The position numbers and the translations under genes were made by a program. From a virus (taxonomy: Duplodnaviria > Heunggongvirae > Uroviricota > Caudoviricetes): 64,000 bases of DNA. Under the pieces are notes generated by a model, which saw nothing but the letters and a program-made list of their open reading frames with translations, searched no databases and had not been told where the DNA came from. How positions within the stretch are numbered: position 1 is the stretch's first letter; each line of letters opens with the position of its first letter. This document shows, piece after piece, positions 3,706-38,181 of the stretch. The stretch is from the IMG/VR virus record IMGVR_UViG_3300021440_000001, one strand, 5' to 3'.

Positions 3706-3746
3706 AAATCCAAAGTCAGAGGTTTAATGGTTGAAAAAAGGAGTAA

Positions 3747-4331: not shown

Positions 4332-4383
4332 AACTTTCAAAAAAAAAAAAATTTGATAACCAGTAAGCACTGGTCTTTGCAAT

Positions 4384-4420
4384 AAACCCGCCCAGGAATA
4401 TATCTGTGGCGGGTTTTTCG
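4384..4420 (+). terminator. rho-independent terminator
   Basis: AAACCCGCC-loop-GGCGGGTTTTTCG after an A-run. Confidence 0.7.
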
Positions 4421-4667
4421 TACTTGTGCGAGCGAGGTGTTTAACCGACGCCGCAGTGGGCTTATGCCACGCCATGAGACTGCAAAATATCCGCATACCT
4501 CATTCTAGCACTAGTTTCAATCCCATGTCAAGCGTAGGGTCTGACTGTTACTCTTCGTCGCGTATACACCACGGAATCGACCTAGAACAAAACCTAATGT
4601 CCCTTTGGTCTTGTTCTTACGGCCTATTTCGTGATAGGATATACCTATAGCAACGAAAAGGAATCTG

Positions 4668-5366
4668 ATGGACTGCATCACATACACCCGCGTATCGACC
4701 CGTGAACAAGGCGACAGTCGCAATGGACTAGAGGCGCAGACCGCCAGACTAGAACAGTTCGCATCCTCTAGCGGGGTGAATATCCTTGCTACCTATGAAG
4801 AGGTAGCTAGCGGGGCTAAGGGCGTGGACGGCAGGCCCGTCCTAGCGGCTGCACTGGCCCATGCTAAGCGGTCTAAGGCCGTCCTGCTGGTGGCGAAGCT
4901 AGACCGGCTAAGCCGCTCAGTGGAGTTCATAGCGGGCCTAATGAACCGGCAAGTACGCTTTGCCAGTGCAGAGGATGGCTTACACTGTGAGCCGTTTATG
5001 CTGCACCTAAAAGCGATGCTTGCCGAGCAAGAACGGCGAATGGTTAGTGAGCGCACTAAGGCGGCGCTGCAGGCTAAGAAAGCACGCGGTGAACCCCTCG
5101 GAGTACACACGCACAAGACACCCCTAGATACTAGCGCTAGGGCTGGCCTAGCGTCCGCTGCTGCTGTGGCTGCTGTGGCCGATCAGTTCGCGCTGCGGCT
5201 GGCTAGCGTGGTGTTACCACTGCGACGCACTGGGATGACGACAGCACAAATAGCTACAACCCTGAACACACAAGGTGTGTATACTGCGAGGGGCGGGCAG
5301 TGGCACGGGTCAACCGTGAACAATATCCTGAAAAGACTGACACAAATGGGGCAAATTGTAGGATAA
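4668..5366 (+). CDS. small serine recombinase (resolvase/invertase family) with C-terminal HTH
   Basis: N-terminal YTRVSTREQ (catalytic Ser), LVAKLDRLSRS, ...ERTKAAL motifs. Confidence 0.8.
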   Translation: MDCITYTRVSTREQGDSRNGLEAQTARLEQFASSSGVNILATYEEVASGAKGVDGRPVLAAALAHAKRSKAVLLVAKLDRLSRSVEFIAGLMNRQVRFASAEDGLHCEPFMLHLKAMLAEQERRMVSERTKAALQAKKARGEPLGVHTHKTPLDTSARAGLASAAAVAAVADQFALRLASVVLPLRRTGMTTAQIATTLNTQGVYTARGGQWHGSTVNNILKRLTQMGQIVG

Positions 5367-14862: not shown

Positions 14863-15052
14863 GACTTATTGGCGTTTTCGTAATAACTTGGCTTCTCTCG
14901 TTTCTGTGCTACACTGCGTTGCGTAGTTCAACTTTCAAACAGAAGCTGAGCTTTGCAAAATGGGCGCTAGTCGCCCTTCTCACCGCATCTGTGGCAACCG
15001 CTGCACTGGCAGCGATTGTCATTTGTTTCTAACCAGTACAAGGAGAAAGTCA

Positions 15053-15850
15053 ATGAAGAAGTTTTTCGCTGCTACCGCAATCGCTGCCTTGGCAATCATG
15101 TCCGCTGGATGCACTCGAATCGAAACCGGCGAAGTCGGTGTGCGTATTGGCTATGACAAGCAAATCAAGCAGGGCGAGCTACTGCCAGGCAGCTTCAACC
15201 AAACCTTGGTGGGATCGATCATCACGTTCCCAATCAAGGACGTGTCGGCTGTCATCGAGAACATGACCCCGATTGCAAAAGACAACAGCACGATGAAGGA
15301 CTTTGACCTGTCTGTCATCTACAGCATCAATCAAAGTCAGGTCGCGGAACTGTACAGCTCGAAGAGCCGTAGCTTTCACGCTGAAGCGAACGGCGACATC
15401 TACTTGATGTACAATTACGTCACCCAGACGGCCCGAAACGCCGCGTACAAGTCTGCGCGAGAGTACGAGGCCCTGACGATGAACGACAATCGCGAGGCGA
15501 TGGAGACGCAAATCAAGGCGATCATCAACGCAACGCTGCAAGCCGAAGGTCTTGGCAACTCGATCACGATTTCTCGTGTTCAAATCCGTGGCGTTGTCCC
15601 GGCAGATTCCATCGTTGCAAGCGCAAACGAGCTTGTGCGCGCCAAGAACGGCCTGCTGCAAAAGGAAGTCGAAGTTCGCACGGCAGAGGCCGAGAGCCGG
15701 CGAATCGCTGCCCTGAATGCCAATACTGGCGCGATCCAATACATGCAGGCAGCGGCACAGATGAAGATTGCGGAAGGTATCGCTGCTGGCAAGGTCCAAG
15801 CAATCGTTGTGCCCTACGACTTCCGAGGTATTGTTGACACCCGTAAATGA
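15053..15850 (+). CDS. lipoprotein, possible SPFH/band-7-like domain
   Basis: lipobox LAIMSAG|C after AAGGAGAAAG RBS; the SPFH resemblance is weak. Confidence 0.5.
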   Translation: MKKFFAATAIAALAIMSAGCTRIETGEVGVRIGYDKQIKQGELLPGSFNQTLVGSIITFPIKDVSAVIENMTPIAKDNSTMKDFDLSVIYSINQSQVAELYSSKSRSFHAEANGDIYLMYNYVTQTARNAAYKSAREYEALTMNDNREAMETQIKAIINATLQAEGLGNSITISRVQIRGVVPADSIVASANELVRAKNGLLQKEVEVRTAEAESRRIAALNANTGAIQYMQAAAQMKIAEGIAAGKVQAIVVPYDFRGIVDTRK

Positions 15851-16398
15851 TTGAGATAGACTACGAAAAAGCTAGTGGGAAATTTTACTACGACGAGACG
15901 AGTACCTCTTGCCTTCGCCATATGACAGGCCAACCGGCTGGTTATCTGTGTAAGACAAGTGGGTACTATAAAGTCACTATTGCAGGCCAAGACGTTATGG
16001 CTCATAGGGTTGTCTTCTGCCTTAATAATAGAGGCATACCAAACAACTTAACTGTAGATCATATAAATGGCGTTAAAAGTGACAACAAAATAGAAAATTT
16101 GCGTTGCGTCCCTCAAGTAGTAAATACTCACAATACGGGTGTAAGATGTGATAACACATCCGGAGTAAAAGGCGTCCACAATAAAGTCAGGGAAATCCCA
16201 AGCGGAAAGACATTCAGCTATTGGGTAGCGACGTGGATGGAAGGCGGAAAGGTCAAAGAGAAGGCGTTTTCTATGCTAAGACACGGAGATAGTGCTTTTG
16301 ATCTTACCGTTAAGTTCAGACTCGCCAAGCTAGATGCCTTAAACTCGACTGGTGCTGAATACACTGCAAGACACAAGGGCATCATCAACACCAAGTAA
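15847..16398 (+). CDS. HNH-AP2 homing endonuclease, family B, copy 1
   Basis: FYYDETS.SCLRH..., VDHINGVKSDN (HNH), AP2-like C-terminus; paralogs at 39946, 40839, 42518. Confidence 0.75.
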   Translation: MIEIDYEKASGKFYYDETSTSCLRHMTGQPAGYLCKTSGYYKVTIAGQDVMAHRVVFCLNNRGIPNNLTVDHINGVKSDNKIENLRCVPQVVNTHNTGVRCDNTSGVKGVHNKVREIPSGKTFSYWVATWMEGGKVKEKAFSMLRHGDSAFDLTVKFRLAKLDALNSTGAEYTARHKGIINTK

Positions 16399-18515: not shown

Positions 18516-19098
18516 ATGAATATAGAAGACTTCAAGACTGAAAGTGGAGAGTGGGCGGGGACGGATACGTTAGGCGGAAAGACCGTATTCACTATTGGCG
18601 GACGGTACTACCATAATATGCGACAACGCTGCAAGGCGGGTGGGGCTAATCAGGGACGAAGGCCGACATACACTAGCTGCACTACAACTTTCAAGTCTTG
18701 CCATGAGTTTATTGAGTGGGGCAGGAAGCAAGTTGGGTACGGGACTGGGGGAGTTGGACAAGGACATTTTGCTGAAGGGCAATAAGGTCTATTGCCCAGA
18801 GTTGTGTGTATTTGTCCCTAGACAGGTAAACCTGCTACTTGTAAGCTGCAACAACAGCAGAGGAGCCTACCCGCTGGGCGTCTCTTACAACAAGAAGGCT
18901 GCTAAATTTGTTGCTCAACTGCGTTGCAACGGACGGGTGGAGTACCTTGGGCTGTTTCCCTCGCCAGAAGCCGCATTCGCAGCCTACAAAGTTGCAAAGG
19001 AAGCTGAAATCAAGCGTGTTGTCAATTTACACATTGATAGTCTTGATTCGCGTGTGTCTACGGCTCTGATGGGCTATAATGTTGATATCAACGACTGA
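18516..19098 (+). pseudogene. HNH-AP2 homing endonuclease family A, copy 3, interrupted by a +1 frameshift in a G5 run (about 18748)
   Basis: N-terminal half in ORF 18516..18785, C-terminal half in ORF 18595..19098; removing one G from ACTGGGGGAG restores ...QVGYGTGELDKDILLKGNKVYCPELCVFV... Confidence 0.7.
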
Positions 19099-19108
19099 AA
19101 GGAGAACG

Positions 19109-19297
19109 ATGAGTCTGCATCAAAAAGAGGCAATCAACAAGATTGCGCAACTAATTGCAGAAGCGCAAGAGAAGATTTCTGAAGCTGAGGCTATTGCTGA
19201 CGAGGCACGCGTCGGCTTCAACATGAGCATTGCCGGCTACGGTATTGTCGGACACTACTCCCCTCATACACAAGAGTGGGAGCCTTTGTATTGCTGA
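19109..19297 (+). CDS. hypothetical protein (62 aa)
   Basis: AAAGGAGAACG RBS + ATG. Confidence 0.5.
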   Translation: MSLHQKEAINKIAQLIAEAQEKISEAEAIADEARVGFNMSIAGYGIVGHYSPHTQEWEPLYC

Positions 19298-19302
19298 CAG
19301 AT

Positions 19303-19470
19303 ATGGAACAGCTCGAACTTTTTGAGCCTATTCCTGAATTCCTAGTTGGCGTTCGCGTCGGCGACGAAATTCAGCAATACGAAGTAGGCGAACTGACGCA
19401 TGAGACTGCGGCGGATTTCATCAGGAAAGAGATTCCGCAAGCAAGTACCGTGTTGGTGAGAGTGAAGTGA
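19303..19470 (+). CDS. hypothetical protein (55 aa)
   Basis: ATG within ORF 19276..19470. Confidence 0.35.
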   Translation: MEQLELFEPIPEFLVGVRVGDEIQQYEVGELTHETAADFIRKEIPQASTVLVRVK

Positions 19471-19590
19471 ATCCGTACTACGCGGCTATAGCATTCACAG
19501 CTCCAGTGCTTGTATTCTTTCCATTCTTGATCTTTGGATTTGAATACAAGCAAGAACAAACCCTCAAAACTGAAAAGGAGAAATCTGAAA

Positions 19591-19836
19591 ATGGCAAAGA
19601 CTGAATTCATTGTTGGTGGTATTGACCTCAACGAGTACAAGAAGGCAAAAGAAGCTGTCACTCAAGTGGCTGTTCAAGCCGTCGCTGAGCGCGTCGAGAA
19701 CATCAAGAAGCTTCTCGGAGAAATCAAGGACATCCAGCAAGCATCCGGTATCGATGTGGACCTCTATAGTCTCAGGTGGCCGCTGGAAGACATTGATACC
19801 GTCAACGACTGGGACTCTTCGTCTGCCCACTGCTGA
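19591..19836 (+). CDS. hypothetical protein (81 aa), paralog of the next gene
   Basis: AAAAGGAGAAATC RBS; N-terminus MAKTEFIVGGIDLNEY resembles MSKIILGGVDIDQIQ. Confidence 0.5.
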   Translation: MAKTEFIVGGIDLNEYKKAKEAVTQVAVQAVAERVENIKKLLGEIKDIQQASGIDVDLYSLRWPLEDIDTVNDWDSSSAHC

Positions 19837-19845
19837 GAGGTACAC

Positions 19846-20259
19846 ATGAGCAAGATCATTCTAGGCGGCGTTGACATCGATCAGATTCAGGCTCAACGCT
19901 CAGCAATGCGAAAAGATGCCGTCAAGTTTATATCCGACGGCATCGAAGAGGCTACGAAGCAGTTCAACGAACTGATGATGTTGGGAGCAGGCTCTGAAGC
20001 AGAAGCAGAGGCTCTTGCTGACCACATCAACAGCCTTCTCAAAGATGTCGCTGTCGTCTCTGACGCTTCTGGTGTGTCGTACCAACTTCCGTACAGTGGT
20101 GAGGACTACGACGAACGCCCGCTATCGTATCGCCTAGAAGACCCGAGAGACGAGGGCGCGGCCGTCGATGCATATATGTCAAGGACTATGGTAAGGCTTC
20201 TTGACACTCTTCAGGAAATGGAAGCTCAGTGTCGGGCCTGGTACTCAAGCAACTGCTGA
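19846..20259 (+). CDS. hypothetical protein (137 aa), tandem paralog
   Basis: shared N-terminal ..I..GG.D.. motif; acidic C-terminus. Confidence 0.55.
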   Translation: MSKIILGGVDIDQIQAQRSAMRKDAVKFISDGIEEATKQFNELMMLGAGSEAEAEALADHINSLLKDVAVVSDASGVSYQLPYSGEDYDERPLSYRLEDPRDEGAAVDAYMSRTMVRLLDTLQEMEAQCRAWYSSNC

Positions 20260-20316
20260 ACAGGGCGACAGATAGCCCAGAAGCCCGGGCTGTTCTGTAA
20301 CTCACGAAAGGATGGT

Positions 20317-21237
20317 ATGATTGTTATCGGATCAACTGCACTGAAGCATCACGGATTTGATGTAACGCCGAAAGACTTAGACCTTGTTGGAACATACGAG
20401 GAGGTTATGAACTTCAAGCATAAGTTCGGAGCAGTTTCATACTATCCAATCAACAGCGGCGCGTCAATGTACATGCGCAACGCTCGCGGAGACGTGTGTG
20501 AAATCGAGCTTGCATGGGAGGGGTCAAGGGCTTGGAAGCTCATCAAATTCGTGCAAGAGCAAGGCGGGAGCGCATGGCGAAACATCGTTGACATCCACGG
20601 GAACGCGTGTCACCTTCCGACGACAGAATTGCTGTACATGCTCAAGATGTCGCACAGATACCTGAGAGACTCTCCGCACTTTCTAAAAACAATGCGAGAC
20701 ATTCAATTGCTTCGTAGCAAGGGTTGTGAAATCCCGCCGAGTTGGAATGACTTCTACCAAGAGCGGATGCGAGACACGTACACGTACAAGCATCCAAACT
20801 TAAAAGTCAACAAGGGGGTGTTCTTCGATGCTACAATGACCGGAGTTGTCCAAAAGTACGACCACGACACTATGCATATCGCTGTTGCACACCTTGACAA
20901 ACCGGCCTACCTGTATTTCAAACCGGAAGACGAAGAGGTGATGTGCAGTAGGGAAATGTTCCTTGCATGTGACAGGCAGATTCAGCTATACTCTATCGTA
21001 GAGGAAGCGATGGTGCTTGCACTAGAAAGAAGCCTCGTGCCATACCCCGGAAAGAAAACCCCGAAAGAGGCGTTTACGCTTGCCTTGATGAAGGTCTGTA
21101 CGTCCATTACGTCAGGCTGGTGGAGGGAATTTGCATGGGAGAACTACGATGCAGCTCTCGCCCTGTACTCTGATACCTACGTTGAGCGTTTCAACGCTGG
21201 TGTCGCAAACCAAACCGTCAAACTGAAGGAGAATTGA
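20317..21237 (+). CDS. hypothetical protein, possible Pol-beta-superfamily nucleotidyltransferase fold at the N-terminus
   Basis: IGSTAL-x13-DLDLV resembles the hG[GS]...DhD signature; weak. Confidence 0.5.
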   Translation: MIVIGSTALKHHGFDVTPKDLDLVGTYEEVMNFKHKFGAVSYYPINSGASMYMRNARGDVCEIELAWEGSRAWKLIKFVQEQGGSAWRNIVDIHGNACHLPTTELLYMLKMSHRYLRDSPHFLKTMRDIQLLRSKGCEIPPSWNDFYQERMRDTYTYKHPNLKVNKGVFFDATMTGVVQKYDHDTMHIAVAHLDKPAYLYFKPEDEEVMCSREMFLACDRQIQLYSIVEEAMVLALERSLVPYPGKKTPKEAFTLALMKVCTSITSGWWREFAWENYDAALALYSDTYVERFNAGVANQTVKLKEN

Positions 21238-21238
21238 T

Positions 21239-21418
21239 TTGAAGAAGTTTTCGACTTTCGCCGTTGCCGCTCTGCTGGCTGTTTCGCTGACCGCTTGCGG
21301 TGGTGGCGAGTCCTATGCTGCGGCGCCTCAACCTGTCGCCCCGCTGCCAGTTGCCGTTGACGCCTCAGGCGTGCCGCTGCCGCAGCAGGGGCGTTTGATG
21401 GAGAGCAGAGATGCCTGA
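21239..21418 (+). CDS. short lipoprotein-signal ORF (TTG start) in the high-GC island
   Basis: LKKFSTFAVAALLAVSLTAC lipobox; GC-rich; possibly a captured host gene fragment. Confidence 0.3.
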   Translation: MKKFSTFAVAALLAVSLTACGGGESYAAAPQPVAPLPVAVDASGVPLPQQGRLMESRDA

Positions 21419-22247
21419 TACCGAAGCGAAACCACTGGTGATTTACCACGGCAACTGTGCGGACGGCTTTAGCGCCGCCTGGTGCTTCTGGCGCTACCAC
21501 CGCGACACCGCTGACTATGTGGCCGGCGTGTACCAGACCCCGCCGCCCGACGTGACCGGGCGCGACGTGTACTTGGTGGACTTCAGCTACAGGCGCGCCG
21601 TGGTAGCCGACATGCTGAACAAGGCTGCGCGGGTGACGCTGATTGACCACCACAAGACGGCCATTGAAGACTTGGCCGGGCTTGAAGGGCTGCGCCAGTA
21701 CACAGACCTTGACCGCAGCGGGGCAACGCTGGCATGGGACTTCCTGTTTCCCGGCGAAGACCGGCCGTTGCTGCTGGGCCACGTTGAAGACCGCGACCTG
21801 TGGCGCTTCAAGTTGGCCGGCACGCGCGAGATTCAGGCGCTGGTCTTCAGTTACGAATATAGCTTTGAGTTGTGGGACAAGCTGATGAGCGCCGATCAGG
21901 TGGAACTGCTGAAGATGACCGCCGCAGGCGCTGCCATTGAACGCAAGCACCACAAGGATGTGGCCGAGCTGGTGAAGGTGTGCCGGCGCCGCATGGTGAT
22001 CGGAGCCTATGACGTGCCGGTGGCGAGCCTGCCTTACACGCTGGTGAGCGATGCCGCGCACTTGATGGCGCAAGGTGAACCGTTTGCGGCCTGCTATTGG
22101 GACACGGCCGAGGGGCGCGTGTTCGGCCTGCGCGCCACCGACGACGGCGTGGACGTGTCGGATGTGGCCAAGCAGTACGGCGGCGGCGGGCACGCCAAAG
22201 CGGCAGGCTTCAAGGTGCCACGCGGGCACGTCTTGGCGGTGGCGTGA
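21411..22247 (+). CDS. DHH-family phosphoesterase (NrnA/RecJ-like core)
   Basis: motifs IYHGNCADGFSAA and LIDHHK (DHH); markedly higher GC than the flanks. Confidence 0.65.
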   Translation: MPDTEAKPLVIYHGNCADGFSAAWCFWRYHRDTADYVAGVYQTPPPDVTGRDVYLVDFSYRRAVVADMLNKAARVTLIDHHKTAIEDLAGLEGLRQYTDLDRSGATLAWDFLFPGEDRPLLLGHVEDRDLWRFKLAGTREIQALVFSYEYSFELWDKLMSADQVELLKMTAAGAAIERKHHKDVAELVKVCRRRMVIGAYDVPVASLPYTLVSDAAHLMAQGEPFAACYWDTAEGRVFGLRATDDGVDVSDVAKQYGGGGHAKAAGFKVPRGHVLAVA

Positions 22248-22400
22248 GGAAGCGCCATAACTGCATCAAGGGCGTTGTGCTCAGCTTGGCACAAAAGCTG
22301 TGGAACGAGCGGACCAAGACCACTAGCCCTGTGCTTGCAACGCACGACACGGATGCACCGATTGTACGGTGTACTTTCTACGTTCAAGAAAAGGAGAAGG

Positions 22401-24004
22401 ATGAGAGGCGTATTTGACATCGAAGCCAACGCACTTCTTGACCACACTACAATCGACTACTTGGCTAGCCCATTCAAGCTCAAGCCTACGTTCATGGTTT
22501 GGTGCTTGGTTGTTCAAGACATCGACACTGGAGCTGTGTACAGGTTTGTAGGTGACGAGGTTCGGACTGAATTTCCCCGCCTGCTGGCAAAGATGACGAC
22601 CATCATCGGCCACAACATCATAGACTATGACTTGCTGGTGCTAAAGCTCTGGCTCGGAATAGACTATGAAATCGGCGAGCAGTGCTACATCGACGGCAGA
22701 CCTGTTGAAATTATCGACACACTGGTTTTGTCCAAAGTGTTGAACCCAGACCGATACGGCGGACACTCTCTTGACGAGTGGGGTAAGCGCCTAGGACTCG
22801 ACAAGATCGACTGGCGTGCAAAAGCAATTGAGCTTGGGCTTATCCAGTACAACTCGCCAAAGGGTGCAGAGTTTGCCCAGTATCACCCAGAAATGCTTGT
22901 GTACAACGAGCGTGACGTTGCAGTTAACGCTAAACTCTATTTCAACCTTGTGGATGAAATGGGCAGTTGGAACTGGCAAGGCCCGTTTGTGCTTGAGCAG
23001 ATGACACGGGACATTATCACCCGACAGTCGCACAGAGGGTTCTGGTTCAACGCTGAACTCGCAGAGGCAAATGTCCGAGAACTTGACGCCAAGATGGAAG
23101 AGATTAGGCTGTTGGTCGAGCCGCTACTGCCGCCGAAGCCGATGGGGTTGACGAAGCTGAAAGGGTACATTCCTCCGAAGATTCAGTTCAAGAAGAATGG
23201 CGAGCCTTCTGCCGTTGTTTTGAAGTGGGTGGAGCGCCACGGGGGCTCGATTTGGGAGGAATCAGGGCACTGGTGGTACAAGGTCTACGACAAGCAGGGT
23301 AAGATGCCAATGCCAGCCGACGAGGCTGTTGTGACGCACGAGCCAGCAACTGTCAAGGACACTACCCACATCAAGGGGTGGCTTGTTGAACTCGGGTGGC
23401 GTCCTACGCAATACAAGGAGCGTGATATAACCTGTGACAGCAAGAAGAAAAAGCTCACACCAGATAAGTTTGCCGACACTGTTGAACGCTACGTAGAGCA
23501 AACGCTGTCTAGTCCATTCAAGCGTGACCGTTGCAACGAACTTGACGTGTCTGCTTCGAGACTCAGAGACAAGTTGCTTAAGCACGACCTGAAGAGGCCG
23601 CTGAAGGTCTACACCAATCCCACCATTACCGTGGGTATGGAAAAAGAAATCGACCCTGCGCTTCTTGAGCTTGCAGACCAGTTCCCGCATGCGAAGCTTG
23701 TGTCAGAGTACCTGACGTATGCTCACAGGCGTAACAGCATCCTGGGCGGAGGGTTTGATCCTGACGACCTAGACGATGATGACGAGTTCGCTGGTAAGGG
23801 TTTTATGGCCGCTGGGCGCATTGCGGAAGACGGCCGTATCCAGACCCCTGCGGACTCCTGCGGAGCTGGCACAAGCCGTTTTAAGCACCGTCTCGTGGCT
23901 AATGTTCCGCGTGTGACCAGTTTGTATGGCAGGAACATGCGGGCTCTCTTTGGAGTTGACAAGGATGACGGATTTCTGCAACTGGGTTACGACTTTGATT
24001 CGTT
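22401..24004 (+). CDS. DNA polymerase I family (T7 gp5-like), exon 1: 3'-5' exonuclease plus N-terminal polymerase region ending in motif A
   Basis: Exo I VFDIEANAL, YNERDV; ends ...LQLGYDFDSL (motif A DxSxxE.R interrupted); AAGGAGAAGG RBS. Confidence 0.8.
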
Positions 24005-24814
24005 AATGACTGGCGAATGTAAAACCTGTTGAATTGCTGGGACACCCTAACGTACAATGGCGAGGGCAATCAGCAGCGAAGACGTGAGCTACCTCTTATT
24101 TGAAAGGAGGTAGGTATGGAAAGAAAGACTGTGCGTTGGTCGCCGTCTTATGATGTTTACGAGGATGGCAGGGTTTGGAGCAGGCACACAGGGAGGTTAT
24201 TGAAGCCCTTCTTGTCCACACAATCTGACGAGTACTTGTCAGTGAAGCTGTGCGAAGACTGCGAAGAACGGACAATCAGTGTGCATAGGCTTGTAGCCGA
24301 GCACTTTGTCCCTAATCCTGACAACCTAGGAACTGTCAATCATAAAGACGGCAACAAACAGAACAACCATCGTAGTAACCTAGAGTGGATGACTCAAGGC
24401 GATAACAAGCGGCATGCGTTCCAAACCGGAGTGTCTGTTGCTTGGTGGCAAGGAGATACACACTCTAGAAGCACTTTCACCAACGAAGAAGTGCATGAGA
24501 TTTGCAGCCTGTTCCAAAGCGGTGTGAAGCCGCTGGACTTGGCGAAGTCCACGACGCTCTTGTACCAGAAGCTGTTTAGAATCTGGAACAGAGATAACTG
24601 GAAGTCGATTTCTAAAGACTATAGTTGGTAGCTCACGTAACGTTCAACGACTATCGAAACCACGCAGCAATGCGGAAGGGAGTAGAGTAGGAAGCAAGCC
24701 TATGGCTTCCGAAGTGGCAGGGGACGAAAGTCCATGATATAGTCTGAACACGCAGGAGACTGCGTGCGGAGGTTAAATCCTCGGGTGGTTGTTGCGAAGC
24801 CACTGAACAAATTG
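24005..24814 (+). other. group I intron in the DNA polymerase gene (carries an HNH ORF)
   Basis: exon ends in U, with P1 pairing ATTCGU/GCGAAU; intron ends in G; conserved core GACTATCGAAA...GAGTAGAGTAGGA...GATGATATAGTCYGA shared with the nrdA introns; spliced product gives DFDSL|EAKIEAH matching T7 DASGLELRCLAH. Confidence 0.7.
24116..24631 (+). CDS. intron-encoded HNH homing endonuclease (NUMOD-like N-terminus + HNH_3)
   Basis: VNHKDGNKQNNHRSNLEW; GAAAGGAGGTAGGT RBS inside the intron; paralog at 37487. Confidence 0.75.
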   Translation: MERKTVRWSPSYDVYEDGRVWSRHTGRLLKPFLSTQSDEYLSVKLCEDCEERTISVHRLVAEHFVPNPDNLGTVNHKDGNKQNNHRSNLEWMTQGDNKRHAFQTGVSVAWWQGDTHSRSTFTNEEVHEICSLFQSGVKPLDLAKSTTLLYQKLFRIWNRDNWKSISKDYSW

Positions 24815-25614
24815 TGGAAGCGAAGATCGAAGCCCACTACGTCTACCGCTATGCGGGAGGTCCGGAGTATGGGGTGAGTCTGACGGCTGAAAAACCGAAT
24901 GACTGCCATAGCGTTCTTGCGCGTAAGATCACGGGAATACTCGGACGTGAGTTTCCTCGGTCAACTGCGAAGAACGTCAAGTATGGGTGCAGCTACAATG
25001 CTCAACCAACGCGTGTGGCTAAGACGGTGGGCTGCGATCTGGATACAGGTCAGATCATCTTCGATGCGTTCTGGGAGCAGGCTAGCCCGCTGAAAGAACT
25101 CAAGGAAAAGATGCAGAAATACTGGGAAGGTCCGGGCCAGAAGAAGTTCCTCATGGGCATCGACAACCGAAAGTTGCCGATCCGCGCAAAAGGGAACGTC
25201 ATCAACACGGCATTCCAGTCTGCTGGCGTCATCTGTGCTAAGCGGGCGATGGTTATCCACGAAAAAATGTTGAAAGACGAGGGTTTGTGGGTTGACTTTT
25301 TCCGCGATGACTGGAAGAATAAGGACTTCTGCCAACAACTGATCGCCTACCATGATGAGGCGCAACTAGAGGTTCGCCGTAGCATGGTGACGTGGAAGAA
25401 GTTCAGTAGCGAAGCTGAGTGCAAGGCGTTCAAGAGCGACGACGGAAAGGTGTGGAGCGACCCTGTTCACAATGACAAGGGCTGGTTCCGTGGCTACTGT
25501 CGTGCTGGCGAGCTTGCAACAATCGCTGTAAGAGAGGCTGGACAACACTACAAACTTAACGTAGAATTGTCGGCTGGATACATGCTAGGCACCGACTGGG
25601 CTAGCTGCCACTAA
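24815..25614 (+). CDS. DNA polymerase exon 2 (motifs B and C, C-terminus)
   Basis: R..AKNVKYGCSYN (motif B), LIAYHDEAQLE (motif C HDE), C-terminal ...GTDWASCH matches T7 ...GPNWAICH. Confidence 0.8.
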
Positions 25615-26677: not shown

Positions 26678-27469
26678 ATGCTAAAAGCTACGAGTATGGC
26701 GGGATGGGACATCCCTCTGAAGGTGTGGAAGTTCCCGTGTGGCGAAGTCGGCGTAAAGATTGAAAGCGGGTTCGCTAATGGTGAAGTGGAAGTGGCAGTG
26801 ACGCTGATGTGGGAGGGCAATGACGACCTGATTGCGCTTGGGCAGTTAGTCGATGCGCTGCGGCACGCGGGTGTTGAACGTATCTCACTGAACATTCCAT
26901 ACTTCCCCTATTCACGCCAAGACCGCCGCTGCAATTCCGGAGAGGGTCACGCCCTTAAAATGGTTGCCGCCTACATCAACAGTCTGAATTTCTCCACCGT
27001 CTACACAATGGACGCTCACAGCTATGTGCTTGAAGCTGTCGTCAACAACCTGCGGGTGACTGAACAAGAAGATTGTGCATTTATGCTGCCGAGCTTTGAT
27101 GTCTTTGTGGCCCCTGACGCAGGCGCCAGCAAGAAGATTTTCAAGCTGACTTCCACCTTTGAGGGTGCGGAAGTTCTTGTTGCTGACAAGAAGCGTGACG
27201 CTATTGGAAGGATAATTGAAACCCGCGTCAGCGGTGGAGAGTCCATTACCGGCAAGTCAGTGTGTGTTGTTGATGACTTATGCGACGGCGGCGCAACATT
27301 CGTTGAGCTTGGCAAGGTGCTTAAAAAGTACGAACCGGCCTCTCTCAACTTGTACGTGACACATGGGTTTTTCACGAAGGGTGTTGAAATTCTGACACCG
27401 TTCTACGAGACAATCTACGTCTCAAACTTGATGAACAACGCGGCAAAGCCGCATGTAAAGGAGATTTGA
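26678..27469 (+). CDS. ribose-phosphate pyrophosphokinase-like protein (Prs / candidate ADPR-PP synthetase Adps)
   Basis: PRPP-binding loop VVDDLCDGGATF, ...YSRQDRR...; 263 aa, shorter than cellular Prs. Confidence 0.7.
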   Translation: MLKATSMAGWDIPLKVWKFPCGEVGVKIESGFANGEVEVAVTLMWEGNDDLIALGQLVDALRHAGVERISLNIPYFPYSRQDRRCNSGEGHALKMVAAYINSLNFSTVYTMDAHSYVLEAVVNNLRVTEQEDCAFMLPSFDVFVAPDAGASKKIFKLTSTFEGAEVLVADKKRDAIGRIIETRVSGGESITGKSVCVVDDLCDGGATFVELGKVLKKYEPASLNLYVTHGFFTKGVEILTPFYETIYVSNLMNNAAKPHVKEI

Positions 27470-27470
27470 T

Positions 27471-29066
27471 TTGAAGAGCTTTCCACTGACCCAAGCCGAC
27501 TTCTACAAGCTGTCGCACAAAAAGTTCATGGTTGATGGCGTGACCAAGATTTACGCCAACTTCACGGCGCGTTCTGGCAAGTATGCAAAGTGGGCAGATG
27601 ACAGAAAGCGAGTAGTGTTTGCTGGCCTTCAGCACTTCATCAAAGACTTCTTGATTGAAGAGTGGAATAGGGAGTTCTTCAAGAAGCCAAAAGCGCAGGT
27701 GATTGCCAAATTCAAGCGACGCGTTGAAACGTCTCTTGGCGTTGGCTCAGTGAGCATGGCCCACTTTGAAGCTCTGCATGACCTTGGCTACCTGCCACTG
27801 AAGATCAAGGCTCTGCCTGAAGGCTCGAAGGTTCCTTTCAAGGTTCCTCTACTGACCGTTGTCAACACTGACGACGATTTTGCATGGCTTGTCACGTACA
27901 TCGAAACTGCCCTTTCGACGGAGCTGTGGGCTACTACCACTGCTGCGACCACTGCGTACCAGTTTCTGACTCTGTGCAACAGTTTTGCAGACCAAACAGT
28001 AGGCAACCGCAATCATGTCATGTTCCAGTGTCATGACTTCTCTGCGCGTGGTGTCATCGGTCGCAATGGTGGGGCTCTAACGGGTCTTGGACATTTGATG
28101 TCGTTCAATGGCACAGATACTATCGCGGCAATCGACCTTGTTGAAGACTATTACAACGTGGATGCCAGCAAGTATTTCATTGCTGCATCGGTTCCTGCCA
28201 GTGAGCACAGCGTAACGTCGCTCGGAAGCAGCGTTCTCGGAGAGTTCGGTACTATCAAGAGCTGGATAACCGAGGCCTACCCGACAGGTATTGTATCAGT
28301 TGTGTCGGATACCTACGATTATTGGCGTGTTCTCACCAAGTACCTACCACTGATGAAGGACGATATCAAGGCACGTAAGCCGAACGAGCTTGGACTTGCA
28401 AAGGTTGTTGTGCGCCCTGACAGCGGCGAGCCTGCACGAGTCATTGCTGGATATCGACCCGACGAGTTTTACTCTGAAGTGAAAAACATTCAGCGAGACG
28501 GCTGGACTGAGTGTGTAAGCGTGTTCACTTGCAAGAGCACTGGAAAGCAGTTGACTGAAGATGAAATCAAGGGTAGTATTGAGATTCTGTGGGAGACATT
28601 TGGTGGCACGACTAACAAGTTTGGCTACCGTGAACTCGACCCGTGCATCGGTTTGATCTACGGCGACAGCATCACGCTGGAGCGGGCTGACGATATATTC
28701 CGCCGATTGCAGCAGCGAGGGTTTGCAAGTAGCAACGTCGTGTTTGGCGTAGGCTCTTACACATACCAGATGGTCAGCCGCGACACGCTTGGCATGGCAG
28801 TTAAAGCCACTGCTGCTGTTGTTGACGGCGAGCTGAAGGCACTATTCAAAAACCCGGCGACTGACGACGGGACGAAGAAGTCTGCACGCGGCCTCATGCG
28901 CGTCGAGCTGATCGACGGTGAGTACGTGATGTTTGACCGCCAAACCGAGGCTCAGGAGGCTTCTGGTGAGCTTCGAACTGTGTTTGAAGACGGCGTGCTG
29001 TTGATTGACGAAACATTTGAGGTCATCCGGGCACGGGTCCAAGACATCGTGCTTGAAAAGGCGTAA
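27471..29066 (+). CDS. nicotinamide phosphoribosyltransferase-like protein (NAMPT/NadV family; candidate Namat)
   Basis: 531 aa; type II PRTase-like with GTDT..., ...YGDSIT... regions; TTG start overlapping the upstream stop. Confidence 0.7.
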   Translation: MKSFPLTQADFYKLSHKKFMVDGVTKIYANFTARSGKYAKWADDRKRVVFAGLQHFIKDFLIEEWNREFFKKPKAQVIAKFKRRVETSLGVGSVSMAHFEALHDLGYLPLKIKALPEGSKVPFKVPLLTVVNTDDDFAWLVTYIETALSTELWATTTAATTAYQFLTLCNSFADQTVGNRNHVMFQCHDFSARGVIGRNGGALTGLGHLMSFNGTDTIAAIDLVEDYYNVDASKYFIAASVPASEHSVTSLGSSVLGEFGTIKSWITEAYPTGIVSVVSDTYDYWRVLTKYLPLMKDDIKARKPNELGLAKVVVRPDSGEPARVIAGYRPDEFYSEVKNIQRDGWTECVSVFTCKSTGKQLTEDEIKGSIEILWETFGGTTNKFGYRELDPCIGLIYGDSITLERADDIFRRLQQRGFASSNVVFGVGSYTYQMVSRDTLGMAVKATAAVVDGELKALFKNPATDDGTKKSARGLMRVELIDGEYVMFDRQTEAQEASGELRTVFEDGVLLIDETFEVIRARVQDIVLEKA

Positions 29067-32260: not shown

Positions 32261-33295
32261 ATGGCAACCTTGTGTTTTGACTACGATTACGTTTTATATG
32301 CCGCTGGGTTCGTCGGGGAGACTCGTTCGATCCGAGTAGTCCACAGGGCATCAGGAGACGAATACGAGTTTGCGAACAGGACGGCTTTTTTCGGTCACTG
32401 GAAAACTAAGTCTGGCGGTTGGCTGTCAGAGTATAATGCAGCCAAGAGCGAAGGCAAAAGGCGTGCAGTAGACGAGTTTGACATTACAGATGTACAGACT
32501 CCTGAACCATTGTCCAACTGCCTGCACACGGCTAAACGTATTATCGAGGGAATTGTAGAGACTTTAGGAGCGGATTCGTACTATGGATACTCTGGCAGGG
32601 GTAAGACTTTTAGAGAAGATGTCTCGACTGTCATTCAGTACAAAGGGCAGAGAAAAGACTCTCTAAGACCCGTACACTTAGATGCTCTAAGGGAGTACCT
32701 TGTAAAGCACCACTCTTGTACAGTCGTAGAGACTATTGAAGCCGACGATGCGTGCTCAATTGACAGTTACACGGCATATCAGAAATGGAAAAAATCTCGA
32801 AAGGATTCTGACAAGCTTGTTCTCGTTGCAGTAGATAAAGACGCTCTGGGTACAGCCTGTCACTTGTATAATCCGAACGAGCCAGAAAAAGGCATAGACT
32901 CTTACGAAGGCTTTGGCAGGCTGTACCTAAACGAAAAAGGTGCAGTCAAAGGCCGTGGCAGAATGTGGCTCTATCAACAGGTTCTGAACGGGGATGATGC
33001 TGACAACTACTTTGCCAACTCTGCTAGTGACATGAGTTGGGGCGAGAAGTCAGCGTATGCTCTCTTGAAGGACTGCAAGAACGACAAGGAAGCCTTTGAG
33101 GCGCTTGTAAAGGGCTACAAGACCCTCTACCCTCAACCTAAGACAATTACGGGCTGGAGAGGCGATACGCTCGACATTACGTGGCTAACGATGCTGCAAG
33201 AGAACTTCACGCTGGCGCACATGCTGCGCCACAAGGAAGACAAGGTAGACGTTGTTGCTACGATGAAAAAGCTCGGCGTGGAGTTTGAAGACTGA
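32261..33295 (+). CDS. 5'-3' exonuclease (T7 gp6-like)
   Basis: conserved blocks IEADDACSIDSY / VAVDKDALG / NGDDADNY align with T7 gp6 LEGDDVMGV / ISCDKDF / KGDITDGY. Confidence 0.75.
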   Translation: MATLCFDYDYVLYAAGFVGETRSIRVVHRASGDEYEFANRTAFFGHWKTKSGGWLSEYNAAKSEGKRRAVDEFDITDVQTPEPLSNCLHTAKRIIEGIVETLGADSYYGYSGRGKTFREDVSTVIQYKGQRKDSLRPVHLDALREYLVKHHSCTVVETIEADDACSIDSYTAYQKWKKSRKDSDKLVLVAVDKDALGTACHLYNPNEPEKGIDSYEGFGRLYLNEKGAVKGRGRMWLYQQVLNGDDADNYFANSASDMSWGEKSAYALLKDCKNDKEAFEALVKGYKTLYPQPKTITGWRGDTLDITWLTMLQENFTLAHMLRHKEDKVDVVATMKKLGVEFED

Positions 33296-33846
33296 TGAGC
33301 AAGACCTTTCAACAACCTTGGGAGGTCTTCCCAGACATCTGGAAGACTAAGGCCGCGTTCTTTTCGTACCTGCGCGGCGGTCTGCGGATGATTTGGTCAA
33401 GATACCCTGCAAAGCTGGAATGGAAGAAAAAGCAGTTGACACCTGAGCGACCTCCGGGTTACACTGGGCGTGGCAAGAGCTTTGGGAAGTGCCACTACTG
33501 TGGGTGCATGTTCACCGGGTCTGCTCTCGAAGTTGACCACGTAGAGCAGGTGGGTTCGTGCAACTCGTGGGAAACTGCTGGGCACTTCATGGAAAATCTG
33601 CTAGACTGTAATGACAACTGGGTGCTGGCTTGTAAGCCGTGTCACAAAGTAAAATCTCACGCAGAAAAGACTGGCGCCTCATTTGAAGAGGCCGCAATCC
33701 AGAAGCGAGTGATTGCCATGACGAAGAACAGCAAAGATTTTGTTGTTGACTTCTGCAAGAAAAATGGTTATAATGCCGACCAACTCACCAACTCCGAAAA
33801 GCGCAAAGCCGCGTTGACGGAAATTTTCACAAAGGAGCTTCAATGA
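33295..33846 (+). CDS. HNH endonuclease (free-standing, small)
   Basis: CHYCG...EVDHV...N...CKPCHKVKS HNH motif. Confidence 0.65.
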   Translation: MSKTFQQPWEVFPDIWKTKAAFFSYLRGGLRMIWSRYPAKLEWKKKQLTPERPPGYTGRGKSFGKCHYCGCMFTGSALEVDHVEQVGSCNSWETAGHFMENLLDCNDNWVLACKPCHKVKSHAEKTGASFEEAAIQKRVIAMTKNSKDFVVDFCKKNGYNADQLTNSEKRKAALTEIFTKELQ

Positions 33847-36561: not shown

Positions 36562-37362
36562 ATGCTTAGAGCAATTCGTAAACGAAGTGGGGAAGTTGTC
36601 TGGTTTGATGCAAACAAATTAAATCGCTGGGGAGAATGGGCCGCTGGGATCGGAGTAGACTGGAGCGGAGTCGCCCTTGAAGCTACCCGCAAGTGTTTTG
36701 ACGGCTGCACAACTGATGATCTTCACAAGGCATTGATTGCTGCTTGCGTTGACCGAGAGACTACCGCACACCTGAAAATGGCTGGGCGCCTGTATATCGG
36801 CGCAATCTACAAGCAAGCCTTCGGCGATTGGCGTGAAATTCCGAGTGTGCAGGATATGTACCGCAAGATGTCCAAACTCGGCCTATGGGCAGAAATGGAC
36901 TACGCGGAAGAAGAGCTGAGCTACTGCAACGAGTTCATCAACCACGAACTCGACATGCAGGCCACGCTGACGGAAACCAAGCAGATCATCGACAAGTACG
37001 CTATCTCAGACCGGGTTGACAAGAAGGTCTATGAAACTCCGCAGTTTGTGTATATGCGGATGGCCCTCGGCAACATGGAGAAGATGCCGAAAGATCGACG
37101 TATGCAGGACGTGAAGAAGCTGTACACCTTCCTGTCACAGAAGAAGATCAATCCGCCTACGCCGTTCAGCCTAAACCTTGGGACTGAGAAGAAGCAGTAC
37201 GCTTCGTGTTGCGTCTTTACAACAGAGGACTCCGCTTCGAGCCTTGCTGCTGCTGACCACATCGCCTACATGATGACCTGCGCATCGGCTGGCATTGGTG
37301 GGCACATCAAGACCCGTAGCAAGGGCGATAAGGTCCGCCAGGGCGCTATTCAGCACATGGGT
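36562..37362 (+). CDS. nrdA: class I ribonucleotide reductase large subunit NrdA, exon 1 (3' boundary approximate, 37362-37370)
   Basis: ATP-cone-like N-terminus; ...SAGIGGHIKTRSKGDKVRQGAIQHMG aligns with E. coli GGGIGINAGRIRALGSPIRGGEAFHTG. Confidence 0.75.
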
Positions 37363-38181
37363 AAATATTTGCCCCTGTAAGCCGGAAGGTTTACAGAAAA
37401 CCTATTGAATTGCTGGAAGGCTAAGGCGCAAGCTATGCTAATCAGCAGGGAAGGCTTCAAGTACGACCTTTACGAAAGGAGGTTGTATGCGAAAATACTG
37501 GACGACAGAAGAGATAGAGCTACTGACAGAGTTTGCCTCGTGTGGCAGGTCATTTATTGAACTTGCTACAATGCTTGGGAGAACACTGCAAAGCGTGCAG
37601 CATAAAGCTAGCAAGCTGTCAATTACGTTTGTACGAAAACCTGCCAAAACACTGTACGGTGAAGTGTGGGCGAAGTCTTACGTAGATGATGTTCTAGTCT
37701 CAAATCATGGAAGATTCAAGCGGGCCAGCACCAACTCTCTCCTAAGCGGAACTGTTCTTCAAGACGGCTACGTTCAAGTAGAGGTTTCCAGAAGTGGAGG
37801 CGCGGTCAAATGCTATGCACACCGGCTTGTTGCAGAGGCGTTCGTGGAGAACCCAGACAACAAGCCAGAGGTCAACCATAAGAATAGGAACAAAGCTGAC
37901 AACTCGGCAGAAAACCTAGAATGGGTGACAAGAAGTGAGAACATGATTCACGCCCATGCTACGGGATTTATCCGTAGGTAGGCTATTGTCGTACTTGAAG
38001 CAACCTTCAGAGACTATCGAAAGCACGCGAAAGCGGAAGCGAGTAGAGTAGGAGAGCGAAGCCGATGCGCCTCCGAAGTGGTAGGCACCTGTTTACAGGT
38101 GATGATATAGTCCGATCCTACGCGAAAGCGTATGGCAGCACGTTATGGTGCGGGGCACACTTGCAAAGTGTCCGAACTTTG
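37363..38181 (+). other. group I intron 1 of nrdA with HNH ORF (boundaries approximate to within 10 nt)
   Basis: 5' region AAAACCTATTGAATTGCTGG and 3' core GACTATCGAAAGCACGCGAAAGCGGAAGCGAGTAGAGTAGGA...GATGATATAGTCCGA nearly identical to the pol intron. Confidence 0.65.
37487..37981 (+). CDS. intron-encoded HNH homing endonuclease (paralog of 24116..24631)
   Basis: VNHKNRNKADNSAENLEW; GAAAGGAGGTTGT RBS. Confidence 0.75.
   Translation: MRKYWTTEEIELLTEFASCGRSFIELATMLGRTLQSVQHKASKLSITFVRKPAKTLYGEVWAKSYVDDVLVSNHGRFKRASTNSLLSGTVLQDGYVQVEVSRSGGAVKCYAHRLVAEAFVENPDNKPEVNHKNRNKADNSAENLEWVTRSENMIHAHATGFIRR

Follow-up and report, generated by a model that had tools for sequence, protein, structure and literature searches.

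The closest described counterparts of the protein considered here include stand-alone DHH-DHHA1 enzymes, namely NrnA (B. subtilis, S. aureus Pde2), Rv2837c/CdnP and T. maritima TmPDE, with B. burgdorferi DhhP, V. cholerae PggH and the GdpP catalytic domain as further comparators. NrnA and NrnB use short linear RNAs and dinucleotides as substrates, as summarized in a review (PMC9779919). [quoted passage not shown] In RecJ, the OB and extra domains confer ssDNA grip and processivity. Phages also possess enzymes that degrade nucleotide immune signals, namely Acb1, Apyc1 and AcrIII-1. An anti-signalling role was predicted for phage DHH enzymes in PMC7824862, which also cites a membrane DHH-DHHA1 nuclease as degrading cA4. 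Degradation of 3'3'-cGAMP and further messengers was reported for a mimivirus DHH protein, and blocking of 3'3'-cGAMP-STING signalling for one DHH protein of a phage. The same study described viral DHH groups with an ordered interdomain helix and disordered interdomain residues in CdnP-like enzymes (bioRxiv 10.64898/2026.07.21.739742).

The window, i.e. the whole stretch of 64,000 nucleotides analyzed here, belongs to a lytic-type phage of about 50% GC that is a distant relative of phiPsa374-like myoviruses. On its plus strand, positions 21411-22247 encode a DHH/DHHA1 phosphodiesterase of 278 aa, as assigned from Pfam, PHROG 4771, an AF2 model and fold matches. PHROG 4771 was matched with E 7.3e-102, residues 1-275 aligning to positions 11-289 of the 363 in the profile. 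The Pfam DHHA1 model gave 28.7 bits, over its cut-off of 25.9, and the DHH model (PF01368) 17.8 bits, under its cut-off of 28.1. The AF2 model (pLDDT 95.7) consists of two domains joined by a long helix (residues 163-191), and Foldseek matched it to NrnA, the GdpP catalytic domain, Rv2837c and PggH with E values of about 1e-11. A preliminary description of this DNA had proposed a DHH-family phosphoesterase without a RecJ OB domain. This agrees with the 278-aa protein, which is composed of the two core domains only; the OB-fold or C-terminal domains and the length of more than 500 aa that accompany DHH/DHHA1 in a RecJ are missing. Compared to the GdpP-type architecture, it starts just 8 residues before beta-1 of the DHH domain.

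The DHH motifs are H13, C16-x-D18-G19, D57, D79-H80-H81, D127-R-D129 and G257-GGG-H261; IYHGNCADGFSAA occupies residues 11-23 and LIDHHK residues 77-82. In an alignment of 41 diverse homologues, motif III (D79-H80-H81), D57 (LVDFSY) and D127/D129 (EDRDLW) are invariant, as are G258 and G260, and G257, G259 and H261 are nearly so. From their order and spacing relative to RecJ, D57 probably represents motif II and D127/D129 motif IV. Motif I (C16-A17-D18-G19) departs from the canonical Asp-x-Asp in that the first Asp is replaced by Cys and the second is kept. This Cys is present in 266 out of 270 homologues. Alignment of the family profile with E. coli RecJ by hhalign covered 15 residues containing the GGH motif only. 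Hence, the position of motif I was set by direct inspection, by which C16-A-D-G lines up with D81-A-D83-G of the E. coli enzyme. In the AF2 model motif I comes after beta-1 (residues 9-13).

With the stand-alone DHH-DHHA1 phosphodiesterases the window protein shares only 12-19% identity. The DHHA1 stretch GLRxxxxxDVxxxAxxxGGGGHxxAAGF aligns with DhhP, SH1221, GdpP and NrnA. The NrnA equivalog NCBIfam NF053633 was matched in the GGGH region only, with 14.9 bits compared to a cut-off of 350, and of the Arg residues in the NrnA RxRxR stretch only the final one is conserved. Motif I is Cys-x-Asp in contrast to Asp-x-Asp in NrnA-type enzymes. The interdomain residues, disordered in CdnP-like enzymes, form a long ordered helix in the model, as in groups 4 and 5 of bioRxiv 10.64898/2026.07.21.739742. 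Very close structural models were found among giant-virus and jumbo-phage DHH proteins (TM 0.79-0.89, 22-32% identity), including those of Marseillevirus, Pithovirus, Klosneuvirus and the phages Erwinia PhiEaH1, Pseudomonas PaBG and Acinetobacter ME3. Mimivirus R106, which was assayed in bioRxiv 10.64898/2026.07.21.739742, is not among the structural matches listed. Evidence of repeated horizontal transfer exists for these proteins as well as for the family of the window protein.

Phage proteins of PHROG 4771, from 123 GenBank phage records, have the same two-domain size and full-length homology to the window protein. Amino acid identity amounts to 54% for gp027 of Polaromonas phage Tiera, 45-47% for Caulobacter phiCbK-like phages and 41% for Vibrio anguillarum H20-like phages. 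Among the phages of the isolate collection, none showed a near DNA match to the DHH gene, and amino acid identity did not exceed 54%. The window copy groups tightly (80-95% aa identity) with copies from temperate phages of Burkholderiales, a clade not represented in this collection. The folds of Acb1 (2H), Apyc1 (MBL fold) and AcrIII-1 (DUF1874) are unrelated to that of the window protein. Like these three, it is encoded by a small, early and horizontally mobile gene and would be a possible analogue if it served counter-defence. The metallophosphoesterase paper PMC12287305 deals with another fold and was set aside as irrelevant.

The DHH gene lies in a region of conspicuous base composition. 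The GC content of 21239-22260 is 64.1%, compared to 50.5±2.1% in the other non-overlapping 1022-bp intervals of the window (z 6.5), of which the highest, at 4671, has 57.5%. Maximum likelihood placed GC change-points at 21259 and 22256. A 300-bp profile rises from 0.52 to 0.60-0.67 and is back at 0.51 by 22300. GC3 is 82% in the DHH ORF and 52-64% in resident genes. These values bear out the sharp GC jump of the preliminary description. Its view of 21239-22260 as one foreign island holds for the base composition and not for the origin of the DNA, as the import starts only at 21373-21388. Positions 21239-21372 are resident phage sequence, which is GC-rich (62.7%) because it encodes an Ala/Pro/Gly-rich stretch and shows a resident-like GC3 of 60% (GC1 71%, GC2 58%).

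The imported cassette comprises 889 bp on the plus strand (21373-22261, GC 64.3%). It begins with a leader of 38 nt that contains a GGAG ribosome-binding site of its own, continues with the DHH/DHHA1 coding sequence and ends 14 nt past the stop codon. Four Burkholderiales phage or prophage contigs (L012, L004, L013 and L094) share exactly these homology end points with 88.5-90.2% nucleotide identity; L094 is a Rubrivivax MAG. The contigs carrying close relatives of the cassette have GC contents of 59-68%. Identical end points at this level of identity in high-GC contigs show that the DHH gene is an imported cassette. More than 7,000 homologues were found. The closest, 80-95% identical on amino acid level, are located in viral contigs and prophages of 59-68% GC, for instance next to an integrase in Paraburkholderia caballeronis, within a RecT/YqaJ early region (L006) or, with 93% identity, in a Rubrivivax MAG. 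The cassette thus stems from high-GC Burkholderiales, where its source was a temperate phage or prophage. Changes specific to the window lineage comprise 17 from GC to AT and 2 from AT to GC, and early GC amelioration is visible in this bias. Acquisition from a high-GC donor, as previously proposed, is therefore backed by the 88.5-90% nucleotide matches, the GC3 value and the substitution bias. That it was recent applies in a relative sense only, because even the closest relative sampled differs by about 10% in nucleotide sequence (dS 0.35-0.47); the true donor is unsampled.

Both ends of the cassette are flanked by remains of resident genes. At the left end, a chimeric ORF of 59 codons with a TTG start (21239-21418, plus strand) was recognized from the ORF list and by comparison with L093, L012 and L004. 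It encodes a signal peptide, a lipobox (LAVSLTAC; LTAC) and a Pro-rich linker, and an AAGGAG Shine-Dalgarno sequence (21227-21232, plus strand), read from the sequence, is located 6 nt before its TTG within the 3'-end of the upstream gene. The translation of 21239-21388 is 96% identical to codons 1-50 of a 165-aa lipoprotein in the sister phage contig L093 (3001-3498), and this gene is full-length in the sister phages L092 and L093. The remainder of the ORF consists of about 10 imported DHH-leader codons joined in frame (GRLMESRDA*), and the same tail, ...QGRLMESRDA*, occurs in the ORFs preceding DHH in the donor-like loci L012 and L004. A 59-codon TTG-initiated lipoprotein-signal ORF overlapping the DHH start, as described previously, does exist. 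It was misplaced as a component of the island, being the 5'-stub of a resident gene fused to the cassette leader.

The left junction, derived from blastn end points and a three-way alignment, is a 16-nt overlap (21373-21388) in which homology to L093 stops at 21388 and homology to donor-like cassettes starts at 21373. The overlap contains the imperfect microhomology GCCGCTGCCGCAGCAG. On the right side, 22259-22351 (plus strand) encodes a 31-codon relic of a UvrD-like SF1 helicase (NCIKGVVLSLAQKLWNERTKTTSPVLATHDT), recognized by comparison with the L093 helicase (3589-5178, 529 aa), to whose residues 175-205 it is 68% identical in amino acids, and with the homologue in L009 (54%). The L093 protein matches Pfam UvrD-helicase (E 6.7e-17). 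A second helicase copy was sought in the 64-kb window and not found. Beyond the relic follows the resident family-A DNA polymerase gene, whose N-terminal part maps to 22401-24032 (plus strand) and which was assigned from its sequence and from similarity to L009 from 22383 onward. Its ribosome-binding site AAGGAG is located at 22391-22396, and Pfam DNA_pol_A matches the C-terminal part (24814-25614).

The polymerase gene is the downstream limit of a variable slot that begins behind the core DUF7277/DUF7275 gene and is situated within a replication and nucleotide-metabolism operon. In L009 and L010 this slot carries different cargo, and in the closest sister phages it contains the 165-aa lipoprotein gene together with the UvrD-like helicase gene. 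In the window phage the cassette took the place of the 3' two-thirds of the former and the 5' third of the latter by illegitimate recombination at the 16-nt microhomology, and the remainder of the helicase gene was lost as well, leaving a 50-codon lipoprotein stub and the 31-codon helicase relic. As these remains flank the cassette, about 1 kb of resident DNA was replaced. The event was no insertion between genes; two resident genes were destroyed by the replacement. A search for flanking direct or inverted repeats of a transposon or integron-type insertion yielded only short repeats at chance level. Neither the island nor 21200-21420 matched any GenBank phage in megablast and blastn searches. 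Exact searches with the junction sequences, both of them in IMG/VR and the left one in JGI metagenomes, had no match either; no second instance of the chimeric arrangement was thus seen in these collections.

The uniformly high GC content over 21239-22260 and the overlapping ORFs could also be read as a single import of this whole region, including the lipoprotein ORF and paired with the upstream nucleotidyltransferase-like gene. However, 21202-21388 is 84% identical on nucleotide level to the 50% GC sister phage in which the full-length lipoprotein gene begins, GC3 of the stub is at resident level, and donor-like homology starts only at 21373. The homology end points, the stub match to L093 and the GC3 value refute this reading, to which we attach hardly any probability.

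The upstream gene (20317-21237, plus strand) is a resident core gene with DUF7277 and DUF7275 domains (Pfam E 8.6e-66 and 4.9e-11) and belongs to PHROG 2141 (E 9e-97). Its homologues in L009-L011 share 47-57% identity, and each is followed by different cargo. The gene is a neighbor of the import and not a component of it. The previously noted nucleotidyltransferase signature is conserved as a motif (G5-S6...D20-x-D22...E62/E64); the fold found no confirmation, as the DUF7275 protein had no PDB sequence or profile match. A nucleotidyltransferase fold thus is suggested on the motif level. The proposal that the two genes form a pair is contradicted by the different cargo behind this core gene in every relative and by the lack of a fixed DHH partner in 72 other loci.

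No promoter-like or terminator-like site was found on the plus strand of 19500-23000 by a scan limited to the sigma-70 consensus. The earlier classification as a moron, in the strict sense, does not fit a gene that lacks its own promoter and terminator and whose import truncated two resident genes instead of separating intact ones. Because such signals are missing, the DHH gene presumably is transcribed along with the replication operon. Its own GGAG site would serve for translation, with probable coupling to the stub ORF, whose 3'-end overlaps the first 8 nt of the DHH gene (ATGCCTGA).

Arrival by destructive illegitimate recombination, with two gene relics alongside, may indicate a functionless cassette that hitch-hikes and decays like the adjacent stubs. 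This is very improbable. The ORF is intact, its ribosome-binding site is kept, and the window copy retains all residues that are invariant in the alignment of the 41 homologues. Compared to the closest relatives dN/dS is 0.08-0.13, and the lineage-specific codon changes comprise 28 synonymous and 13 non-synonymous ones. The gene thus is intact and under purifying selection.

We favor a role as a divalent-metal phosphodiesterase. The DHH site (H13, C16, D18, D57, D79-H80-H81, D127) would face the DHHA1 motifs GGGGH and L-R-(S/A) across a cleft set by the rigid helix. Substrates may be short linear 5'-phosphorylated oligo- and dinucleotides, possibly also pAp, which would be converted to mononucleotides feeding the dNMP kinase, RNR and ThyX module of the phage. 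The overall account, import by replacement of a gene for a nanoRNase-like oligo- and dinucleotide phosphodiesterase, is held with middling confidence. Its weakest part is the substrate and physiological role, for which the nanoRNase-like function is the favored suggestion from sequence and model. Similarity to characterised NrnA-type enzymes is limited to the DHHA1 motif, and another metal or chemistry could follow from the Cys that invariably replaces the first motif I Asp; both observations speak against a nanoRNase.

The window context tells little about function because it was produced by a chance replacement. The operon includes genes for ligase, ThyX, primase/helicase, DNA polymerase, dNMP kinase and RNR, and additionally for NAMPT and PRPP synthetase. 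Among 72 viral loci no conserved partner gene of DHH was found. The commonest neighbor is an integrase (25 out of 72); orphan C5-methyltransferases (9), DNA pol A (9) and dNMP kinase (6) also occur. In temperate phages the gene mostly lies close to the integrase, together with other accessory genes of the early region, a setting that suits counter-defence equally well as nucleotide salvage or better. In phage Tiera its neighbors are primase and DNA pol I, and in CcrSwift a dNMP phosphatase and RNase H. Together with the window operon and the DNA pol A and dNMP kinase loci, these neighborhoods count in favor of the nanoRNase-like role. The homologues carry the JGI label 'oligoribonuclease NrnB/cAMP/cGMP phosphodiesterase (DHH superfamily)'.

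The neighboring replication and recombination genes in Tiera, CcrSwift, the DNA pol A loci and the RecT/YqaJ region of L006, the RecJ-like long rigid helix between the domains and the correspondence of C-A-D-G to motif I of E. coli RecJ are consistent with a minimal RecJ-like ssDNA or RNA exonuclease serving phage replication or recombination by flap trimming, RNA primer removal or end resection. We consider this unlikely. A protein of 278 aa lacks the OB and extra domains, hhalign recovered no more than the GGH motif of RecJ, RecT loci already have the YqaJ exonuclease, and replication genes accompany the DHH gene in only a minority of loci.

A stronger competitor of the nanoRNase-like role is counter-defence, in which the DHH protein would keep effectors off by degrading c-di-AMP, 3'3'-cGAMP or other CBASS products, cA3/cA4/cA6 of type III CRISPR or linear intermediates, an idea also raised in the preliminary description. 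DHH enzymes are capable of such chemistry, and GdpP, DhhP and Rv2837c/CdnP are structural matches. The cA4-degrading membrane nuclease and the prediction for phage DHH enzymes (PMC7824862), messenger degradation and STING blockage by viral DHH proteins and the ordered helix shared with the model (bioRxiv 10.64898/2026.07.21.739742), and the best viral structure matches to giant-virus and jumbo-phage proteins point in the same direction. Furthermore, the gene is accessory-like. Its cassette of about 1 kb moves among unrelated phages, lies near integrases and orphan methyltransferases in temperate phages and occupies a hypervariable slot here, and the operon's NAMPT and PRPP synthetase are candidates for NAD+ counter-defence. 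On the other hand, PADLOC models matched neither the DHH protein nor the upstream protein, and no fixed link to a defence or anti-defence gene was seen. Several lytic phages carry the gene inside replication modules, NrnA and NrnB act on linear substrates (PMC9779919), and the published evidence for signal degradation comes from other DHH groups. In sum, we regard counter-defence as a tentative alternative of clearly lower probability than the nanoRNase-like role.

Thousands of phages and prophages carry the Cys-x-Asp DHH/DHHA1 clade, which is structurally near the giant-virus DHH proteins. It is conceivable, if rather doubtful, that this clade is a distinct class whose Cys metal site and rigid helix are suited to destroying nucleotide immune signals, cyclic or linear, and that its cassette-like spread between unrelated phages, the present replacement included, reflects selection for counter-defence.

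The case is a clean but ordinary instance of gene shuffling among phages; its family, fold and functional hypothesis have all been described before. The horizontal transfer is unusually well resolved, with both junctions, the microhomology, two relics, the donor lineage and early amelioration readable from the sequence. The import suggests that the phage encounters Burkholderiales prophages in its host. The viral DHH subfamily is very large, comprising 11,872 clusters at 50% identity with an invariant Cys at the canonical Asp metal position, and viral DHH enzymes are only now under test as antagonists of nucleotide immune signalling. Thus, the function of the window protein would bear on thousands of genes.

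The jump in GC content that the preliminary description had placed at 21239-22260 was borne out. This island has a GC content of 64.1%, compared with a mean of 50.5% (sd 2.1, maximum 57.5%) in the 1022-bp windows covering the rest of the 64-kb sequence (z = 6.5). A 300-bp profile gave the same step, and a two-state likelihood scan put the change-points at 21259 and 22256. Both ORFs described there are present. The DHH ORF (21411-22247, 278 aa) carries IYHGNCADGFSAA and LIDHHK. The overlapping 59-codon TTG-initiated ORF (21239-21418), here called the stub, encodes a textbook signal peptide with the lipobox LAVSLTAC, has an AAGGAG site 6 nt 5' of its start and shares 8 nt with the DHH start. Flanking repeats, a promoter and a terminator were sought at the island and none was found.

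The window represents a plus-strand replication and nucleotide metabolism operon encoding ligase, ThyX, primase/helicase, DNA polymerase A, PRPP synthetase, NAMPT, dNMP kinase, ribonucleotide reductase (RNR) and many HNH proteins. Its primase/helicase shares 49% identity with the counterparts of phiPsa374-like Pseudomonas myoviruses; the phage is only a distant relative of known phages. The gene upstream of the island (20317-21237; DUF7277 and DUF7275, PHROG 2141) has homologues with 47-57% aa identity in three viral contigs (L009-L011). Quite different genes lie between this homologue and the DNA polymerase gene there, and this interval is therefore regarded as a hypervariable slot. Two much closer sister phage contigs, L092 and L093, were retrieved with the 59-aa stub peptide. 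They have 50% GC, match window positions 19097-21388 with 77-79% nt identity and show the gene order DUF7275, full-length 165-aa lipoprotein, 529-aa UvrD-like helicase (Pfam UvrD-helicase, E = 6.7e-17). The DUF7275 homologue of L093 (2105-2933) is divided into three ORFs (2105-2308, 2396-2590 and 2622-2933), which reflects frameshift decay or else errors in metagenome assembly.

The upstream gene had been suggested for testing together with the DHH gene on account of a weak nucleotidyltransferase-fold signature. Its product indeed conserves the G5-S6...D20-x-D22...E62/E64 pattern that minimal nucleotidyltransferases typically show, but PDB and profile searches for this fold gave no match. The pairing itself did not hold, since the upstream gene is followed by different cargo in L009-L011 and by the lipoprotein gene in L092 and L093. 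Its position beside the DHH gene is an accident of the replacement event.

Comparison with L093 and with four independent high-GC contigs (L012, L004, L013 and L094, the last a Rubrivivax MAG) delimited the imported segment. Window positions 21202-21388 correspond to L093 2964-3150 and span lipoprotein codons 1-50 (96% aa identity), and 22259-22351 correspond to L093 4111-4203, i.e. helicase residues 175-205 (68% aa identity; 54% to the L009 helicase homologue). The segment between, 21373-22261, matches the four high-GC contigs with 88.5-90.2% nt identity and identical homology end points in all of them. Because L093 homologies flank a donor-like segment, we conclude that a cassette replaced resident DNA. 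In a three-way alignment both homologies overlap at the left junction (21373-21388) in a 16-nt imperfect microhomology, GCCGCTGCCGCAGCAG. The 889-bp cassette took the place of the equivalent of L093 3151-4110. Lost with this stretch were the lipoprotein gene's 3' two-thirds, the spacer and the initial third of the helicase gene. The remainder of the helicase gene is also missing from the window, where homology to the DNA polymerase leader restarts at 22383.

The island had been interpreted as a single import including the lipoprotein ORF, a view that has to be revised. The stub is a chimera in which resident codons 1-50 are joined to the cassette leader; the ORFs that in L012 and L004 lie ahead of the DHH gene share its tail, QGRLMESRDA and stop. 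Codon statistics agree with this anatomy: GC3 of the stub is 60%, like that of resident genes (52-64%), its GC richness being confined to the first two codon positions (Ala, Pro, Gly), and GC3 of the DHH gene is 82%. In L012 (3538-3678) and L004 (460-600) a conserved 46-codon TTG ORF ending in ARHERMPYPACADCVDLAAAKQGRLMESRDA and a stop codon precedes the DHH gene and overlaps its start by the same ATGCCTGA as in the window. This ORF may represent a genuine small gene or a translation-coupling leader peptide; only its last ~15 codons moved into the window phage. The full-length resident lipoprotein (L093 3001-3498, 165 aa), of which window positions 21239-21388 are the stub, combines a lipobox with a linker rich in Pro and Gln, a hydrophobic segment resembling a glycine zipper (GVGAGTAAAAGVIGGGLLGYMMG) and a basic tail rich in Q and P; it has no Pfam match. 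Against L093 the stub shows a dN/dS of 0.014, and it matches PHROG 542 only weakly (E = 1.3e-4). Superinfection exclusion is one possible role.

The proposed acquisition from a high-GC donor is supported by the match to the four contigs and by the GC3 value. More than 7,000 homologues of the DHH protein were found at E <= 1e-5, the best 120 being 78-95% identical. The best homologues with known context reside in phage or prophage DNA of 59-68% GC. They include a copy adjoining an integrase in Paraburkholderia caballeronis (L005), one from a RecT/YqaJ-containing early region (L006) and copies in the genomes of Rubrivivax (93% aa), Paraburkholderia tuberum and Sterolibacterium. The four closest relatives have only ~1 kb around the DHH gene in common, and therefore it also travels between those phages as a cassette. 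Even the nearest sampled relative differs by ~10%, and thus the actual donor is unsampled. Neither junction sequence occurred elsewhere in IMG/VR, nor the left one in JGI metagenomes. With dN/dS of 0.08-0.13 against the four relatives, and lineage-specific codon changes of which 28 are synonymous and 13 non-synonymous, the gene appears to be functional; that it is a neutral passenger is very improbable. Polarised substitutions (17 GC-to-AT versus 2 AT-to-GC) show that amelioration has only begun.

Several other features of the window deserve mention. The family-A DNA polymerase gene (22401-25614; split 24032/24814) is broken inside motif A (...GYDFDSL/EAKIEAHY...) by ~780 bp with an HNH_3 endonuclease ORF (24116-24631). 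Rfam group I intron RF00028 matches across 23979-24766 over the whole model (1-253), but with 21.9 bits against a gathering threshold of 50 (E = 0.005). A group I intron carrying a homing endonuclease is the probable explanation, the alternative being a gene split by a free-standing endonuclease. Just 3' of the polymerase gene, PRPP synthetase (26678-27469) and NAMPT (27471-29066) form a NAD+ salvage pair of the kind linked to phage counter-defence against NAD+-depleting immunity. The RNR large subunit is encoded as separate ORFs in a region rich in HNH and AP2-HNH endonuclease genes (features at 36562-37380, 38942-39898, 41416-42531 and 42440-43327, the last an HNH_3, AP2 and glutaredoxin fusion; also 15847-16398, 18595-19098 and 33295-33846); homing endonuclease genes have spread heavily through the operon. 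An SPFH/Band-7 (prohibitin/flotillin-like) protein, unusual for a phage, is encoded among early/replication genes (14960-15850). A possibly truncated serine recombinase (4668-5366, 232 aa; Resolvase domain and start of the Recombinase domain) lies in the second most GC-rich stretch (57.5% over 1022 bp). The genome otherwise looks lytic, and this may be another gene that was acquired or is decaying.

Assignment of the imported protein to the DHH phosphoesterases was supported by PHROG 4771 (E = 7e-102) and by Pfam DHHA1 above threshold; Pfam DHH stayed below it. The family comprises 11,872 clusters at 50% identity (E <= 1e-3). In 41 homologues (42-95% identity) H13, C16, D18, G19, D57, D79, H80, H81, D127, D129, G258 and G260 are invariant, and R241 and H261 nearly so. 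Beside RIIVVGDFDADGATS of E. coli RecJ, motif I (LVIYHGNCADGFS) aligns C16 with the first of the two Asp residues of D-x-D. This Cys (H-x-x-C-x-D-G) is found in 266 of 270 homologues and could confer a different metal preference; no description of the variant was found in the publications consulted. The AlphaFold model (pLDDT 95.7) has two domains linked by a 29-residue helix (163-191) and is matched by models of giant-virus and jumbo-phage DHH proteins at TM 0.79-0.89. Sequence likeness to solved DHH proteins is limited to the DHHA1 'LRS...GGGGH..AAGF' region, and the protein fails the NrnA equivalog model.

No fixed partner gene was found across 72 viral loci, where neighbours included integrase (25), DUF2303 (14), DNA polymerase A (9), C5-methyltransferase (9), DUF4224 (8) and dNMP kinase (6). 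In isolated phages the gene follows primase (Tiera), lies near dNMP phosphatase and RNase H (CcrSwift) or is located among early genes (Vibrio P2). Sequence, model and context do not discriminate between possible substrates. We give about an even chance to a nanoRNase/pAp-phosphatase-like oligo- or dinucleotide phosphodiesterase acting in nucleotide turnover. Degradation of nucleotide immune signals would be a less probable, tentative alternative, and a RecJ-like nuclease is an improbable reading. This counter-defence idea is not new, having already been predicted for phage DHH enzymes (PMC7824862). A July 2026 preprint (bioRxiv 10.64898/2026.07.21.739742) reports that a mimivirus DHH protein degrades cGAMP and that one phage DHH protein inhibits signalling; it also describes, in some viral groups, an ordered helix between the domains as well as repeated horizontal transfer.

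The observations in the preliminary description thus stand, and its interpretation was partly right. The imported gene is a member of a very large viral DHH subfamily with an unusual Cys-x-Asp metal motif, and the case is a clean, well-resolved example of a cassette replacing resident DNA at a variable slot of a phage.
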